Shown here: positions 8,199 to 13,924 of the stretch, piece by piece
Layout: the number at the start of each line of letters is the position of its first letter
Position numbering within the stretch: position 1 is the stretch's first letter
DNA from: Chthonomonas calidirosea
GTDB taxonomy: Bacteria > Armatimonadota > Fimbriimonadia > Fimbriimonadales > Fimbriimonadaceae
DNA length: 31,250 bases
Assembly (NCBI GenBank): GCA_945859975.1
Contig: CAMAPH010000035.1
Coordinates: 1 to 31,250, forward strand
Reading direction: 5' to 3'
The notes under the pieces: generated by a model
The model's input: only the letters and a program-made list of their open reading frames with translations
The model's database searches: none
What the model was told of the DNA's origin: nothing
Translations under genes and position numbers: made by a program

Positions 8199-8909
8199 AT
8201 GCGACCCAGTGGCCGAACTCCCGACACCATGCGACCCGTTAGCTTCGAACGGGGATTTTCTAAGTTTGCGGAGGGATCGTGCCTGCTCAAAATCGGCGAA
8301 ACCCACATGCTGGTCACCGCCACCGTCGAAGATCGCGTGCCCCCGTTCATGAAAGGCAAGGGAAGCGGCTGGCTCACTGCCGAATACTCCATGCTCCCAC
8401 GCTCCGGTCGCCAGCGAAATCAGCGCGACCTGATGAAGCCAAATGGCCGCTCCATGGAAATCCAGCGCCTCATCGGCCGCGCGCTCCGAACCGCCATTGA
8501 CCTCGAAAAGCTCGGTGAGCGAACCATTACTCTCGACTGCGACGCGATCCAAGCCGACGGCGGTACTCGTTGTGCCGCCATCACCGCGGGCTATGTTGCC
8601 GCCTATGACGCCGTCCGCTGGATGCTCAGCAAGCGAATGCTCAAGGAGAACGTGATGCGAGAACCCATCGCGGCGATCTCGGTCGGCGTCTACCGTAACA
8701 TCGAAGTGCTTGACCTCGATTACGACGAAGACAGCAACGCCGGAACGGACATGAACATCGTCATGACCGCGTCCCAAAAGTTTGTTGAAATCCAAGGCAC
8801 CGCCGAGGCCGCCCCCTTTGGCGTTGATGTCTTAGGAAAACTGCTGAAGCTAGGACAAAAAGGAATTCTGGAGCTCGTTGAGGGCCAAAAAGAAGTCCTC
8901 GAAATTTAG
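8199..8909 (+). CDS. rph: Ribonuclease PH
   Basis: Motifs MRPSGR, AEGSCL, GWLTAEYSMLP, GRSMEIQRLIGRALR, QADGGTRCAAIT, DLDYDEDS, DMNIVMT and EIQGTAE. Confidence 0.97.
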   Translation: MRPSGRTPDTMRPVSFERGFSKFAEGSCLLKIGETHMLVTATVEDRVPPFMKGKGSGWLTAEYSMLPRSGRQRNQRDLMKPNGRSMEIQRLIGRALRTAIDLEKLGERTITLDCDAIQADGGTRCAAITAGYVAAYDAVRWMLSKRMLKENVMREPIAAISVGVYRNIEVLDLDYDEDSNAGTDMNIVMTASQKFVEIQGTAEAAPFGVDVLGKLLKLGQKGILELVEGQKEVLEI

Positions 8910-8928
8910 TTCTGTTGTAGTGTTAAGC

Positions 8929-9714
8929 ATGCGTCGAGCATTTACTCTGATCGAGCTCCTCGTGGTGATTGCCATCATCGCGATCTTGGCGGCAATCCTC
9001 TTTCCTGTCTTTGCGCAGGCAAAACTGAGTGCCATCAAGACCCGAGCGCTCGCCCAGTCGAAGCAGCTGGCAACCGCGCTCGTGCTCTACGCGACTGATC
9101 ACGATGATAACTTCGTCCCCGCGTCGCTTCGCTCGGCCCAGCCGGGCGATCCCGAGATCTGGCCGCCGAAGCTTCTGCCGTACGTAAAGAGTAAAGACCT
9201 CTTTGTCGCGGCAAACACCGACGCCCGATTCGCAGAAGACTGGACAACTCGCCGCAACCAGAACATCGGCTACAACGATGCAACCGGAATCGACCTGGCT
9301 TCCACCGCCGTGCCGGGGGCAGCACCAGCCGGAACCGAAGGATTCACTACCGCCGCCTCCTTCTCGCTCGCGGAAGAATCGGCGAGAACCGGCCTCATCG
9401 CCTTCACGCCAAATTCGGTGAACGGCAAAGAACGCGGGTACGTGTTCAACCCCTACAACGGACCAAACGACCCGAATGGATCCTACAACTTCGGACTCCC
9501 CCTTATCGGCGACGTGAACCTTTGCACGACGCCATACAAAGGTGTGAACCACTCCACAAAAGTCCCGGGCGCACTGAAGCCAATCTATGCTCGATACGGT
9601 GGCGACGGGACTGGAAACGGCCAAACCCCCGTTATCTTCGCTGACGGCCACGCCCGGCTTTACTCCGCCAATCGACTTCAAGTCTTCGGCGAAGTCATCT
9701 GGCGCTTCCGGTAA
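8929..9714 (+). CDS. Prepilin-type N-terminal cleavage/methylation domain protein (DUF1559/H-X9-DG-like)
   Basis: [32 protein letters not shown] at the N-terminus and FADGH near the C-terminus. The start is set at the ATG at 8929, since the longer ORF overlaps rph. Confidence 0.9.
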   Translation: MRRAFTLIELLVVIAIIAILAAILFPVFAQAKLSAIKTRALAQSKQLATALVLYATDHDDNFVPASLRSAQPGDPEIWPPKLLPYVKSKDLFVAANTDARFAEDWTTRRNQNIGYNDATGIDLASTAVPGAAPAGTEGFTTAASFSLAEESARTGLIAFTPNSVNGKERGYVFNPYNGPNDPNGSYNFGLPLIGDVNLCTTPYKGVNHSTKVPGALKPIYARYGGDGTGNGQTPVIFADGHARLYSANRLQVFGEVIWRFR

Positions 9715-9778
9715 TCGATCATCAAATCGACCCAATCAACATCACCAAGGATAATTTCTATTCTTGACGAAAGAGTAT

Positions 9779-9814
9779 ATTTTGATCCGTCAAACATTTT
9801 TGACGGATCAAAAT
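9779..9814. promoter_or_regulatory. Perfect 16-bp inverted repeat overlapping the start codon of the second prepilin gene
   Basis: ATTTTGATCCGTCAAA-CATT-TTTGACGGATCAAAAT. The last 2 nt are the AT of the ATG at 9813. The function (operator or RNA hairpin) is inferred. Confidence 0.6.
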
Positions 9815-10577
9815 GAAGAAAGCATTCACCCTCATCGAACTGTTGGTTGTCATCGCCATCATCGCGATTCTTGCGGCGATCCTTTTCCCCGTCTTCGCCC
9901 AGGCTAAAGTTGCCGCCAAAAAGACGGCGAGCATCAGCAACCTGAAGCAGATCGGACTCGCCGGGGTGATGTACGTGACCGATAACGAGGCGTACCCCTT
10001 CATGTCCTCGCCAAGCTCCCAAACCCCGCGCACCCGCTGGCCGGACTATCTCTACCCATACATCAAGAACGAAGACGTCTTCCTCGCTCCAAACGCTGAT
10101 CCTGTGATCTTCGGAAAAATCTGGGCCCATAATCCCGCCAAGAAGTACGGAGGATACGGATACAACTTCCAGTACCTCGGCAACTCCCGATCCGTCGCTG
10201 GCAACGCCAATTTCCCGTTCACCGCCACCGAAACCCAGGTTTCAACTCCCGCCCAAACCATCTTTGTTGCTGATACCAACGGCGTCCGACGTGATAACAA
10301 CACCGTCGGCGCGGGCGAATACACCCTTGATCCACCGCTATCGTCAACCCGAGGTAGCGGCAAAGCCAGTGGCTATTACGGCGAAGGAACGGAGTGCGGC
10401 TCCGGCCCCCGAGGTTGCCGATCCACCCCGGCCGAGCGCCATGCCGGCCGAGTTGCCGTCCAGTTTGCCGATGGCCACGCAACCACCATGAAGCTCGCCG
10501 CCATGGACGACTTCAACGGCGACGGAACGCTGGATAACGGCTGGTGGAACGGCAACGCCGATCCAACCAGCCGGTAA
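9813..10577 (+). CDS. Prepilin-type N-terminal cleavage/methylation domain protein with H-X9-DG motif
   Basis: [45 protein letters not shown] and an exact H-X9-DG in [14 protein letters not shown]. Confidence 0.92.
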
Positions 10578-10584
10578 ACGAACC

Positions 10585-11772
10585 TCAATCCTTGTAAGGA
10601 TCAAACTCGTTCTCGCCCGCCATTGCAACCCCGAACGGGGTCAACGTGTGCAGGATTTTCACCGTTTCCGCGTGAAAATCCAGCACCTCATCCAGCCGCT
10701 TGTAGCAGTGCGGAGACTCATCGCAACCCGCACCGCGAAGCGTTACTCCGGCAGATCGAACCCAGTCGTTCATCATCTCCTGCGTAATCGACCCGCCCAC
10801 CCTTCGGCGCTGACCGTCGACACGCTTGAGCTTTCCGGCCGCCTGAGTTCGGCTCAATACTCGTCCCGCGCCGTGGACCGTCGAGTACAACGCGGCCTCG
10901 GACCGCTCCGATTCCACGCCCTCCAAGATCACGCTCGGCTCGCCCATGCTGCCACCGACAAACCCTCGCTGACCCGGGAAAGCCGGCGTTGCCCCCTTTC
11001 GGACCACAAACAGGTTCTCACCGTCATGCGTTTCCTGCCAAGCAAAGTTGTGGTGGTTGTGAACCTCGTCCACAGTCTCCGCCCCTAGCAAACTCGCCAC
11101 GCGCTGGCAAACCCAGTCTCGGCCGGCGTAGGCGTACCGCCCCGCCAGCAACATGCTTCGCCAGTAATCCTGCCCTGCCTGCGTCTGCATCGAAAGAAGC
11201 ACCGGCGCGGCTATCATTCCGCCATCGCTCGGCGCTCCGGCGAGTTCAAGAAAGTGCGTTGCGATGCCGTGTCCGAATCCACGGCTACCAAAGTGCACGC
11301 CCACCCAAACCTGGCCGTTCTCATCTCGGAACAGGTCCACGTAGTGGTTGCCCGAGCCAACCGTGCCCAACTGGTTTCGCGCCTTGTCGCGAACGCTCGC
11401 CTGATTCAAGTACGCAATGTCCTTCCACGCGCTATCGTCAAACAACTCGTGATCGACCGTTTCCTTATTGCGTAACCCAACGCCGAACGAGATCGTGTTC
11501 CAAACCTCGTCCATGATCCGCTCAACATCGTTCTCGATGTCCGAAAACGCCAGATTCAGCCGAACCGCCTTGTTTCCACAAGCAATGTCGAACCCAACGC
11601 CTGCCGGGCTGATATGGTCACGGTAGGCCACCACGCCACCAATCGGCATGTTGTAACCCACGTGGCCATCCGCGCAAAGCACCGCCGACTTGGCGTGCTC
11701 ATTGCTCGCACAGCTCTTCATTTGAATCAACGTGTTTTCGTCGTGATTCCCAAAGACCAAAAAGTCTTTCAT
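10585..11772 (-). CDS. rtcB: RtcB-family RNA 2',3'-cyclic phosphate/3'-P:5'-OH ligase
   Basis: Motifs ADGH, GFDIACG, LGTVGSGNHY, HFGSRG, HNHHN, RKGATPA, GSMG and STVHGAGR (guanylylated His). The true start is MKDF at 11772, preceded by SD AAGGAG; the 106-aa extension in the ORF track is rejected. Confidence 0.95.
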   Translation of the reverse strand: MKDFLVFGNHDENTLIQMKSCASNEHAKSAVLCADGHVGYNMPIGGVVAYRDHISPAGVGFDIACGNKAVRLNLAFSDIENDVERIMDEVWNTISFGVGLRNKETVDHELFDDSAWKDIAYLNQASVRDKARNQLGTVGSGNHYVDLFRDENGQVWVGVHFGSRGFGHGIATHFLELAGAPSDGGMIAAPVLLSMQTQAGQDYWRSMLLAGRYAYAGRDWVCQRVASLLGAETVDEVHNHHNFAWQETHDGENLFVVRKGATPAFPGQRGFVGGSMGEPSVILEGVESERSEAALYSTVHGAGRVLSRTQAAGKLKRVDGQRRRVGGSITQEMMNDWVRSAGVTLRGAGCDESPHCYKRLDEVLDFHAETVKILHTLTPFGVAMAGENEFDPYKD

Positions 11773-12062
11773 TCGGTATCTCCTTTTTGAGGCAGCCTGG
11801 CGCTGAGCATCCGATTGGAGGGCAGAAACCCTACGCCGAGCCACTGGAATGGGAGCAACCCCGCCTCCAAAACGCGGTAGCTCCAAAAGGAAGTCTGGGG
11901 GTCGGAAGACTTTTTGCGTATTCGCGACCCGAAGTGTTCGAGGGTCGCGAAGCTGAGAAATTAACTCAATCGAACTGGACCCATAGACAAACCGAGATAC
12001 AGACTGCCGGCAAAAAGCCCGCAATCCGTACTGTGTGTTTGTATGGGACGAATTCGTCGCAT
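11773..12062 (-). ncRNA. Structured 5' leader of rtcB (putative cis-regulatory attenuator)
   Basis: Rod hairpin at 12056-11971, a perfect 10-bp hairpin at 11951-11921 with a competing strand at 11907-11899, and an anti-SD strand at 11892-11881. The G-U pairs favour the minus strand. Confidence 0.55.
11961..12062 (-). CDS. Putative leaderless leader peptide, 33 aa (MRRIRPIQTHSTDCGLFAGSLYLGLSMGPVRLS)
   Basis: The ATG lies 7 nt after an extended -10 (TGG-TACCTT), the same geometry as other apparently leaderless genes in this window. It is the 3' part of track ORF 11961..12158. Translation is not demonstrated. Confidence 0.4.
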   Translation of the reverse strand: MRRIRPIQTHSTDCGLFAGSLYLGLSMGPVRLS

Positions 12063-12069
12063 CGCGCTC

Positions 12070-12106
12070 AAGGTACCAGAGCCGATACAAATAGAGTCAA
12101 GTATCG
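12070..12106 (-). promoter_or_regulatory. Putative rtcB promoter with overlapping palindromic operator
   Basis: TTGACT (12100-12095), a long 19-nt spacer, then TG-n-TACCTT (12075-12070). The palindrome CGATAC-N12-GTATCG (12083-12106) brackets the -35. Confidence 0.5.
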
Positions 12107-12148
12107 TGCTGACTTTGTGATGCGGATTGCGTCTATCCTTAAAAGAGT

Positions 12149-13924
12149 TTGAGATCATTCCGCCGCACCCTGGAATTTCTCATGCCCTACAGGGCGCGAG
12201 TGATCGGTGCCGTTATCCTCACGTTGCTGGTTACGGTGCTGCAGATCGTGCCGCCCAGAATTTACCAAGCCGCCATTGACGGACCGATCAAATCCGCCCT
12301 CCGCGACAAATCGGACGCGAACATTGCTGCCGCGAACACGACCTTGTTCTGGATCGCGATGGGCCTCATTGCCGTCATCGCCGTCCGGAACATCTTCAGC
12401 TTCGTCCACAGCAACCTGCTCAACTGGATAGGGCACCGGTTCGTCTTCGATCTCCGCTTCAAAACCTGGCAGCACCTGCAACGCCTGAGCCTTGCCTTTC
12501 ACAACCAGACCCAAACCGGAAAGATCATGGCCCGCATCACCGCGGACATCGAGCTCATTCAGGGTCTCATCCAGGGCCAGCTCGTCACTTTCATCAGCGA
12601 CATCGTGACCCTCGTCACCGTCCTCGGAATGCTCTTCTTCCTGGAATGGCGACTCGCCACGGCCATCCTTTTGCTGGTCCCCTTCTATGTCGTCTCGTAC
12701 CTGTTCTTCCTAAAGCACATTCGAGAAGTCAGCCAGGAGCAGCGAAAGTATTACGACGAAATGCTCGGCAAGCTGGCTGAAAAGATCGCGGGAATCCAAG
12801 TCGTCAAGGCGTTCGTCCGAGAAGACACGGAGCGCGAGAGCTTCATGGCTTCGGTTAGAAAGAAGTTCTCGGTGGACATGCGTCAGGTTCACCTGAACCG
12901 GCAGCTCGGCCTTGTTAGCGGCGCAATCTCCGCCCTCGGCACTGGCGCGGTTTATGCCTTCGGCGGCCAGATGGTGCAAAACGGAGAAATGACGACCGGA
13001 AAGCTGGTCGCGATGACCTTCTACATCGGCTTCATCTTTAACCCTGCCGTCCGGGTCGTCGACTTCAACAACGCTCTCCAATGGGCGGTCAGCGCGATGG
13101 ACCGCGTATTCCAAACCCTCGACACTCGGCCAGAAATCGAGGACAGTCCGAACGCCATCAACCTCCCGCCGATTCACGGCGTCGTCGAGTTCCGCGATGT
13201 CACCTTCGCCTACCAAGATGCTCGCCCGGTGGTTGAGGGACTCAACCTGACCGTGCAGGAAGGGGAAGTGGTCGCCCTGGTCGGTCCTAGCGGATCGGGC
13301 AAAACCACCCTAATGAACCTGCTGATGCGGTTCTGGGATCCCACCCGCGGGCAGGTCCTCATCGATGGCCAAGACATCCGAGACGTAAGGCTAGAATCGC
13401 TGCGACGCCAGGTCAGCATGGTCGCGCAAGAGAACGTTCTCTTTAGCGTCTCTATCCTCGAGAACATCAAGTACGGCAAGCGGGACGCTACCGACGAAGA
13501 AGCCCTCGCCGCCGCGCGCACCGCCGACCTAGATAGCTTTGTCGAAACATTGCCGGACGGCTACGAGACGATGATCGGCGAAGAAGGCATTAAGCTCTCT
13601 GGCGGTCAAAAGCAGCGCCTCGCGCTTGCCCGTGCGCTCGTCACCGACCCAAGGATCCTCATCCTCGACGACGTCACTAGCGCCCTCGATGGCGAAACCG
13701 AAGCACGTGTTCAAGACGCCTTGCGCCAAGTCATGCGGGGCCGCACGACCTTCATCATCGCCCACCGCCTTTCGAGCGTCGTTGCTGCAGATCGTATTCT
13801 CGTGATCGAGAACGGCAACATCGTAGACATGGGCACGCACTTCGAACTGATCGAGCGTCCCGGAATCTACCAAGAGACATACCAAGAACAGTTCCGGTCG
13901 GCGCTCGATATGGTCCGCGCCTGA
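12149..13924 (+). CDS. ABC exporter half-transporter (fused TMD-NBD, MsbA/MdlA-type)
   Basis: N-terminal TM helices, Walker A GPSGSGKT, Q-loop VAQE, signature LSGGQKQR, Walker B ILILDD, D-loop SALD and H-loop IAHRLS. The TTG start is uncertain; the alternative is the ATG at 12182. Confidence 0.92.
   Translation: MRSFRRTLEFLMPYRARVIGAVILTLLVTVLQIVPPRIYQAAIDGPIKSALRDKSDANIAAANTTLFWIAMGLIAVIAVRNIFSFVHSNLLNWIGHRFVFDLRFKTWQHLQRLSLAFHNQTQTGKIMARITADIELIQGLIQGQLVTFISDIVTLVTVLGMLFFLEWRLATAILLLVPFYVVSYLFFLKHIREVSQEQRKYYDEMLGKLAEKIAGIQVVKAFVREDTERESFMASVRKKFSVDMRQVHLNRQLGLVSGAISALGTGAVYAFGGQMVQNGEMTTGKLVAMTFYIGFIFNPAVRVVDFNNALQWAVSAMDRVFQTLDTRPEIEDSPNAINLPPIHGVVEFRDVTFAYQDARPVVEGLNLTVQEGEVVALVGPSGSGKTTLMNLLMRFWDPTRGQVLIDGQDIRDVRLESLRRQVSMVAQENVLFSVSILENIKYGKRDATDEEALAAARTADLDSFVETLPDGYETMIGEEGIKLSGGQKQRLALARALVTDPRILILDDVTSALDGETEARVQDALRQVMRGRTTFIIAHRLSSVVAADRILVIENGNIVDMGTHFELIERPGIYQETYQEQFRSALDMVRA

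Follow-up and report, generated by a model that had tools for sequence, protein, structure and literature searches.

In E. coli and Salmonella, the rtcBA genes are under the control of RtcR and sigma-54, and the timing of rtcB expression in bacteria without RtcR is largely unexplained. To our knowledge, no riboregulation has been described in the phylum Armatimonadota. The RtcB-like gene armZ (PA5471) of Pseudomonas aeruginosa is, according to the passages of PMC12057347 that deal with it, controlled by the leader peptide PA5471.1 and induced when ribosomes are impaired. Mycobacterial attenuators with polycysteine coding stretches, as summarized by Canestrari et al. (10.1101/834739), are leaderless short ORFs in which a run of Cys codons serves as the sensor and a stalled ribosome blocks the duplex that sequesters the RBS. 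In erm-type translational attenuation, as outlined in PMC8298421, arrest occurs on the motif Arg/Lys-X-Arg/Lys in short leaders, with the stall site beside the helix that masks the SD. Our literature search for rtcB together with a leader peptide, a uORF or attenuation returned no such leader beyond the armZ case.

Here we describe the region upstream of rtcB on contig C35 of the genome G000 (3.1 Mb, 95.8% complete); the window is the whole stretch of this DNA that was analysed, 31,250 nt long. The spacer between rtcB and a divergent ABC exporter gene covers 409 nt (11773-12181), and the rtcB leader within it is a real cis-regulatory leader. We lean towards the reading that a stand-alone rtcB mRNA carries a lineage-specific 5' leader, about 305 nt long and encoded by the spacer, and that this leader would hold rtcB translation low in cis. 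This mRNA would be leaderless with respect to a 33-codon uORF lying inside the first hairpin, its default state would be OFF, or at least low, and remodelling of the leader would raise expression. The features listed by an earlier sequence-only reading are all present, with the correction that the uORF ATG lies at 12062 and not at the implied 12061; the complementarity of 11916-11906 to rtcB codons 2-5 (11/11) and the position of the uORF within a long hairpin were absent from that list. The elements of the locus are the following:

12182..13924, plus strand: MsbA-like ABC exporter gene, divergent upstream of rtcB, ATG at 12182
12083..12106, minus strand: inverted repeat CGATAC (12106-12101) / GTATCG (12088-12083), enclosing TTGACT; helix 2 of the predicted fold
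12100-12095, minus strand: TTGACT, inside the inverted repeat CGATAC-N12-GTATCG
12070..12077, minus strand: putative -10 element GGTACCTT, of the GGTAnnnT type of this genome, 7 nt before the uORF ATG
11961..12062, minus strand: uORF MRRIRPIQTHSTDCGLFAGSLYLGLSMGPVRLS, 33 codons plus TAA (ATG 12062-12060, TAA 11963-11961), without an SD
11971..12056, minus strand: module I, an imperfect long hairpin made up of helices 4 and 5, within which most of the uORF lies
11968-11954, minus strand: small hairpin with the uORF stop codon in its loop
11921..11951, minus strand: module II, a perfect 10-bp GC-rich hairpin TTCGCGACCC / GGGTCGCGAA with an 11-nt loop, 9 nt after the uORF stop
11903..11917, minus strand: anti-start strand, pairing in helix 8 with 11771-11758 (rtcB start codon and codons 2-6)
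11886..11893, minus strand: anti-SD strand CUUCCUUU, pairing with 11787-11780 in helix 9
11792..11884, minus strand: inner hairpins of the 3' domain, P2 (11884-11852) and P3 (11844-11792)
11780..11785, minus strand: rtcB SD AAGGAG, kept in G014 and G036, with the ATG 7 nt further on
10585..11772, minus strand: rtcB, 395 aa, ATG at 11772, stop at 10585, PF01139 (E 3.9e-67)

The gene rtcB is monocistronic, with a DUF1559 gene convergent on its downstream side. Its start is fixed at 11772 because the frame upstream of the ATG is closed in the close relatives G014 (57 nt up) and G036 (120 nt up), both of which keep the SD, and this rules out an N-terminal extension of RtcB into the leader. The protein scores under the cut-offs of all NCBIfam RtcB subfamily models. 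A 65-aa ORF from the ATG at 12158 was discarded, as it has no NCBIfam match and overlaps the start region of the ABC exporter gene, which is kept in G014 and G036. Elsewhere in the window, two neighbouring genes at 8878-10577 (plus strand) carry a prepilin-type N-terminal methylation motif, one of them also DUF1559, in keeping with an Armatimonadota-type genome, and a 16-bp AT-rich perfect palindrome at 9779-9814 (ATTTTGATCCGTCAAA...TTTGACGGATCAAAAT), which could be an operator or a hairpin, adjoins the start (9813) of the DUF1559/N-methyl gene.

The proposal that rtcB is controlled independently of RtcR is supported by a PF06956 search, which gave no match in this 95.8%-complete genome and detected PF06956 in an E. 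coli control. No gene for archease or Ro60 was found in the genome, nor a PrfH-type factor above cut-off. The best match to a sigma-54 promoter in the spacer (11869-11854) has three mismatches, which is chance level, so that an RtcR/sigma-54 Rtc system, lacking both an rtcR gene and a credible sigma-54 promoter, was rejected. In sister species of the genus, a conserved ECF-sigma-type promoter, GAAC-N16/17-CGTCTA, is located 12-20 nt before the rtcB ATG (loci L009-L017, from G032, G016, G027, G004, G018, G011, G003, G002 and G025; similar in L028-L030), and an SD-less rtcB start follows directly after it. To judge by this arrangement, rtcB in these species would belong to an ECF stress regulon and its mRNA would be almost leaderless; no ECF sigma gene was found among the 5 flanking ORFs of 2 relatives' loci. 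Such a promoter was rejected for the spacer studied here, where the best score is 8.2 and lies below the 95th percentile of the null (10.7); the nine real sites score 22.5-26.1, values that are circular since the matrix was built from the same nine sites. In the clade of the window, the ECF promoter appears to have been replaced by the long leader. As the sister species apparently use the ECF-type promoter for the same task, the pair would show regulatory turnover of an RNA-repair gene.

A standard sigma-70 scan of the spacer found no promoter, because TTGACT and TACCTT, taken as -35 and -10, are 19 nt apart. Genome-wide, TANNNT stands 12 nt before the candidate starts of 7.9% of 2219 long ORFs, as compared with about 0.8% at other offsets, which corresponds to an enrichment of about 10-fold at -12 and about 3-fold at -13, with -14 also enriched, and the aligned leaderless consensus of G000 is GG-TA-n-n-n-T, without a -35. 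There are 60 instances of GGTANNNT-N6-ATG in the genome, 54 of which open ORFs of at least 100 aa, and 49 of GGTANNNT-N7-ATG (36 opening such ORFs), as against 8 each with N3 and N4. GGTAnnnT thus precedes ATG by 6-7 nt at more than 100 sites in G000, with 90 of 109 opening ORFs of at least 100 aa. The element GGTACCTT is invariant in G014 and G036 and is the only one of the GGTAnnnT type in the spacer. Because it fits the genome's own leaderless-promoter signature, transcription probably starts at, or 1 nt before, the uORF AUG at 12062; the uORF would then probably form the extreme 5' end of the mRNA, in support of the promoter proposed by the sequence-only reading, and the long leader would be transcribed together with rtcB. 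Among the N7 instances, 13 precede short ORFs, most of which are expected by chance, and the promoter call for the uORF therefore rests on context and conservation as well. Seven other short leaderless ORFs with the same promoter spacing were listed and have no common theme. A 23-aa ORF, MRRSPRA..., stands behind GGTAnnnT-N7 at position 28930 of contig C27 of the same genome (plus strand), with no long ORF within the next 900 nt. The absence of an SD before the uORF does not count against its translation, given how seldom SD-like motifs occur here: on a crude estimate they accompany 20% of first candidate starts, versus a background of 13%. The inverted repeat at 12083..12106 occurs once in the genome and is a candidate operator or -35 region. 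This Fimbriimonadaceae-type genome appears to use leaderless mRNAs widely, with a GGTAnnnT promoter that has no -35, which aids annotation of the group.

By DNA search, the leader was found in 3 of 175 family genomes including G000, the other two being G014 (98% identical), which falls into one GTDB genus with the window genome, and G036 (88%); of 46 genus genomes, 3 were matched by a covariance model built on the 3' domain. RtcB is 98% identical in G014 and 93% in G036, and the next best identity among 61 genomes of the genus and its order is 66%. The spacer differs at 51 of 408 positions (12.5%) from G036 and at 9 of 408 (2.2%) from G014, while the four-fold sites of rtcB diverge by 37.6% from G036 and by 12.7% from G014, and those of the ABC gene by 39.9% and 11.6%, respectively. 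The spacer thus evolves about three times more slowly than synonymous sites (12.5% versus 38-40% for G036). Divergence from G036 by segment is as follows:

12181-12101: 3.7%
12100-12062: 5.1% (2 of 39 positions)
uORF: 23.8%
perfect hairpin region: 5.0%
3' domain: 13.6%

On these figures, the whole spacer is constrained, most tightly near the promoter, the most conserved stretch being 12181-12062 (5 of 120 positions differ in G036). As judged from these alignments, the spacer is shown to be under strong purifying selection. Outside the three genomes, the best 80 metagenome RtcB loci, all with at most 65% identity, gave no leader match by nhmmer, and the covariance model of the 3' domain returned nothing from 100 rtcB loci apart from one match at E 5.3, and nothing else in its own genome. 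The hairpin pattern matched 21 stretches across species genomes, of which 2 belong to the known relatives and 19 are unrelated palindromes from other phyla. The suggested comparison with the covariance models of Rfam gave no match at gathering score in the window and, for 11600-12400 with E up to 10, only two unrelated eukaryotic/archaeal small-RNA families (E 6 and 6.8). The leader therefore has no Rfam family and its novelty holds at the level of sequence.

The predicted fold of the leader is specific to the minus strand (z = -3.78, versus -1.56 for the plus strand, in the shuffle control) because of its G-U pairs. Of the pairs in the fold predicted from G000 alone, 6 are broken by the 47 G036 substitutions, as against an expectation of 16.6, and none of 5000 permutations gives so low a number. 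What the substitutions preserve is a fold of three thermodynamically independent modules, namely two hairpins, one very stable and one perfect, and a three-way junction. Module I has a predicted energy of -45.3 kcal/mol (z -6.45) in G000 and of -45.0 kcal/mol (z -4.68) in G036, partly by way of re-registered pairs, while the same 25 substitutions placed randomly give -30.0 +/- 4.1 kcal/mol and reach -45 in 2 of 1000 trials (0.2%, P = 0.002). The stems of module II are invariant in the three genomes, its loop is variable, and the hairpin is unique in the genome. The 3' domain alone is not significant (fold z -1.82; random-substitution P = 0.13). In P3, 7 of the 19 pairs are G-U and the loop CCUCCAAUC is invariant. 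The word UUUUGGAG occurs twice in the 3' domain, 16 nt apart, at 11865-11888 (minus strand), and the P3 loop carries CCUCC; these SD-like and anti-SD-like words might be decoy or standby sites. In addition, GGGUC / GACCC segments have four invariant occurrences, in the uORF 3' arm, in both hairpin arms and in the loop between the anti-start and anti-SD strands, and a CCGACCC is conserved and unpaired. The covariation check proposed for relatives was answered in part: pairs are spared, as described above, but 1 pair in 114 shows a two-sided change and the shuffle control is not significant. This formal signal is weak, since the comparison covers three genomes that amount to a single informative divergence (G000/G014 versus G036). 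The alternative pairings 12131-12123/12028-12020, 12008-12000/11897-11889 and 12017-12010/11917-11910 are at chance level or not kept in G036. No terminator-like site was found in 11600-12400, and no U tract follows the module II hairpin, so that control must act on translation or stability, and a transcription attenuator of the trp or PA5471.1-armZ type was rejected.

At the other end of the leader, the closing helices of the three-way junction pair the rtcB SD, the start codon and codons 2-6 in the predicted fold. All 13 pairs of the anti-start helix are kept in the three genomes, a synonymous AAA>AAG change in codon 2 turning U-A into U-G, and variation affects 4 of the 7 pairs of the anti-SD helix, none of which loses its pairing, with one two-sided change (U-A / U-G / C-G). 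The SD and codons 2-5 are both this closed in 1 of 150 shuffles, SD pairing alone being matched by 26%. The predicted cost of opening the start site is 14.6 kcal/mol, as compared with a median of 10.0 in 80 crude SD-led control genes, 17.5% of which are at least as closed; on this modelling, the rtcB start site is closed, not extreme. An RNA thermometer was rejected, the probability of an unpaired SD being 0.03-0.19 over 10 to 65 C in the three species.

Several explanations other than a leader that holds rtcB low were considered. The uORF might be a ribosome-stall sensor, responding to macrolide-type arrest at R-x-R, to shortage or cleavage of tRNA-Arg or to damaged ribosomes, in which the stall refolds the leader and opens the rtcB start; we regard this as unlikely. 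The leaderless promoter geometry, which puts the uORF AUG at the 5' end, is consistent with such a sensor, and so is the retention of M-R-R-x-R-P in all three genomes, a stretch that is also part of a helix and a palindrome. However, only MRRxRP and DCGLFAGSLY are conserved in the peptide, and both coincide with RNA helices. As for conservation of the uORF, its frame stays open in 3 of 3 genomes, but 12061-11969 holds no stop in any of the three minus-strand frames, a 33-codon open frame is not unusual here, and the ATG and open frame survive in 26% of trials that place the G036 substitutions at random. In G036, 12 of the 33 residues differ (14.2 +/- 1.8 expected at random) and the 24 substitutions split 7/8/9 across codon positions, without bias, so that the peptide seems to evolve as if unconstrained. 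Rare-codon stalling at CGA-CGA was rejected, since CGA accounts for 30% of the Arg codons and the genome has a gene for tRNA-Arg(UCG). From +7 onwards, moreover, the uORF is buried in the -45 kcal/mol hairpin, which should hamper its own translation. We masked a 28-nt ribosome footprint at 34 P-site positions, or the whole uORF, in the three species, using models restricted to equilibrium folding. The sequence-only reading had held that ribosome progress through the uORF decides whether the rtcB SD is exposed, and this is not supported by the models, in which the SD stays paired under every mask (probability unpaired 0.08-0.20 in all three species); mutually exclusive structures that free the SD did not appear in equilibrium folding. 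With footprints at P-site codons 2-10, and not beyond codon 15, rtcB codons 2-5 do loosen in all three species (probability unpaired rising to 0.3-0.6 from about 0.1), and the 3' arm released from the first hairpin pairs elsewhere in the 3' domain; the four invariant GGGUC / GACCC segments also speak for the sensor. Against this, the predicted stalled structures differ among the species, and the cost of opening the start site stays the same in G000 and G014 and drops, by 1.3-4.3 kcal/mol at codons 2-8, in G036 alone. As the uORF stop lies 9 nt before the perfect hairpin, which the sequence-only reading had called switchable, a terminating ribosome would merely abut it. When the 5' arm of this hairpin is masked together with the uORF, its 3' arm pairs with CCGACCC and loops out the anti-start strand.

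That the leader senses nothing and is a constitutive element of mRNA stability or processing seems improbable to us; its 5' hairpin would then shield the mRNA or serve as a target of the RNase III type, and its 3' domain would only set a low rate of translation. This reading would suit the position of module I, the most strongly selected part, at the 5' end, the independence of the modules and a start-site closure within the range of other genes, but 300 nt of conserved structure is long for such a purpose, the invariant perfect hairpin and the conserved unpaired CCGACCC are given no role, and the stress-type rtcB promoter of the relatives suggests that the gene is normally regulated. Control at the level of DNA, with the palindromes (CGATAC-N12-GTATCG; GACGAATTCGTC at 12058-12047; TTCGCGACCC-N11-GGGTCGCGAA) as operators of repressors for the divergent rtcB and ABC promoters, is more improbable still. 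Conservation does peak at 12181-12062, the palindromes lie at and just past the promoter, and the hairpin stems are invariant in sequence rather than covarying; yet a genome search for the three palindromes found no recurrence beyond chance, the centre of GACGAATTCGTC is broken in G036, and the strand-specific G-U pairs and the stability kept through re-registered pairing point to RNA. Finally, modules I and II might make up a small RNA in its own right, some 140 nt long and with the perfect hairpin as its end, while rtcB would have its own start further down; we consider this very improbable. The order of promoter, long hairpin, small AU-rich hairpin and GC hairpin resembles that of a small RNA, but the hairpin is without a U tract, although canonical U-tract terminators exist elsewhere in the window (e.g. 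1562-1533), and downstream there is no second GGTAnnnT element, no ECF-type promoter and, as the sole sigma-54-like match, the chance-level site with three mismatches mentioned above.

For the leader that holds rtcB low, which we prefer, the single likeliest trigger would be a delay of the pioneer ribosome in the first ~10 codons of the uORF (M-R-R-x-R-P), itself a tentative and rather unlikely choice, which would bear a likeness to the leaderless short-ORF attenuators of mycobacteria; about as likely, taken together, are a protein, helicase or RNase that acts in trans and mere constitutive tuning of translation and stability. Here we speculate, with slightly less confidence again, that the Arg-rich leaderless mini-ORF might gauge the health of translation, that is, the supply or cleavage of tRNA-Arg, damaged ribosomes or R-x-R-arresting drugs, and that a delayed pioneer ribosome might free the 3' arm of the first hairpin, whose GGGUC would invade the loop that carries GACCC and separates the anti-start from the anti-SD strand, thereby opening the rtcB start. 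If true, translation damage would feed back on RNA repair through the ribosome and without RtcR. The locus in any case offers a compact and testable cis-element, which combines a promoter and a 5'-terminal AUG with three RNA modules and an occluded start.

With regard to known systems, the locus shares the ligase RtcB with the RtcR/sigma-54-controlled rtcBA operons, and differs from them in having neither RtcR nor a credible sigma-54 promoter, with rtcA unlinked on another contig. As in erm-type attenuation, at least in the features outlined in PMC8298421, there is a leader ORF with R-x-R and the SD of the regulated gene lies in a helix; here, however, R-x-R occupies codons 3-5, 270 nt from the SD, and the gene is not a drug-resistance gene. 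Unlike the mycobacterial attenuators as summarized in 10.1101/834739, the rtcB leader has no Cys run, its uORF pairs with itself, the RBS lies 190 nt past the uORF stop and the modelling shows no coupling, whereas both have a short ORF at the 5' end of the mRNA, a duplex over the next RBS and a terminator-free translational control. The view that the leader belongs to no described family is thus correct for its sequence, which has no Rfam match, but not for the idea, since PA5471.1 is described in PMC12057347 as the leader peptide controlling the RtcB-like armZ. The mechanism of the latter is given as transcription attenuation with predicted intergenic terminators (PMC12057347), whereas the rtcB leader has no terminator-like site and no sequence similarity outside the three genomes. 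What the two have in common, as far as the description of PA5471.1-armZ in that source goes, is a leader ORF upstream of an RtcB-family gene and control that is independent of RtcR.
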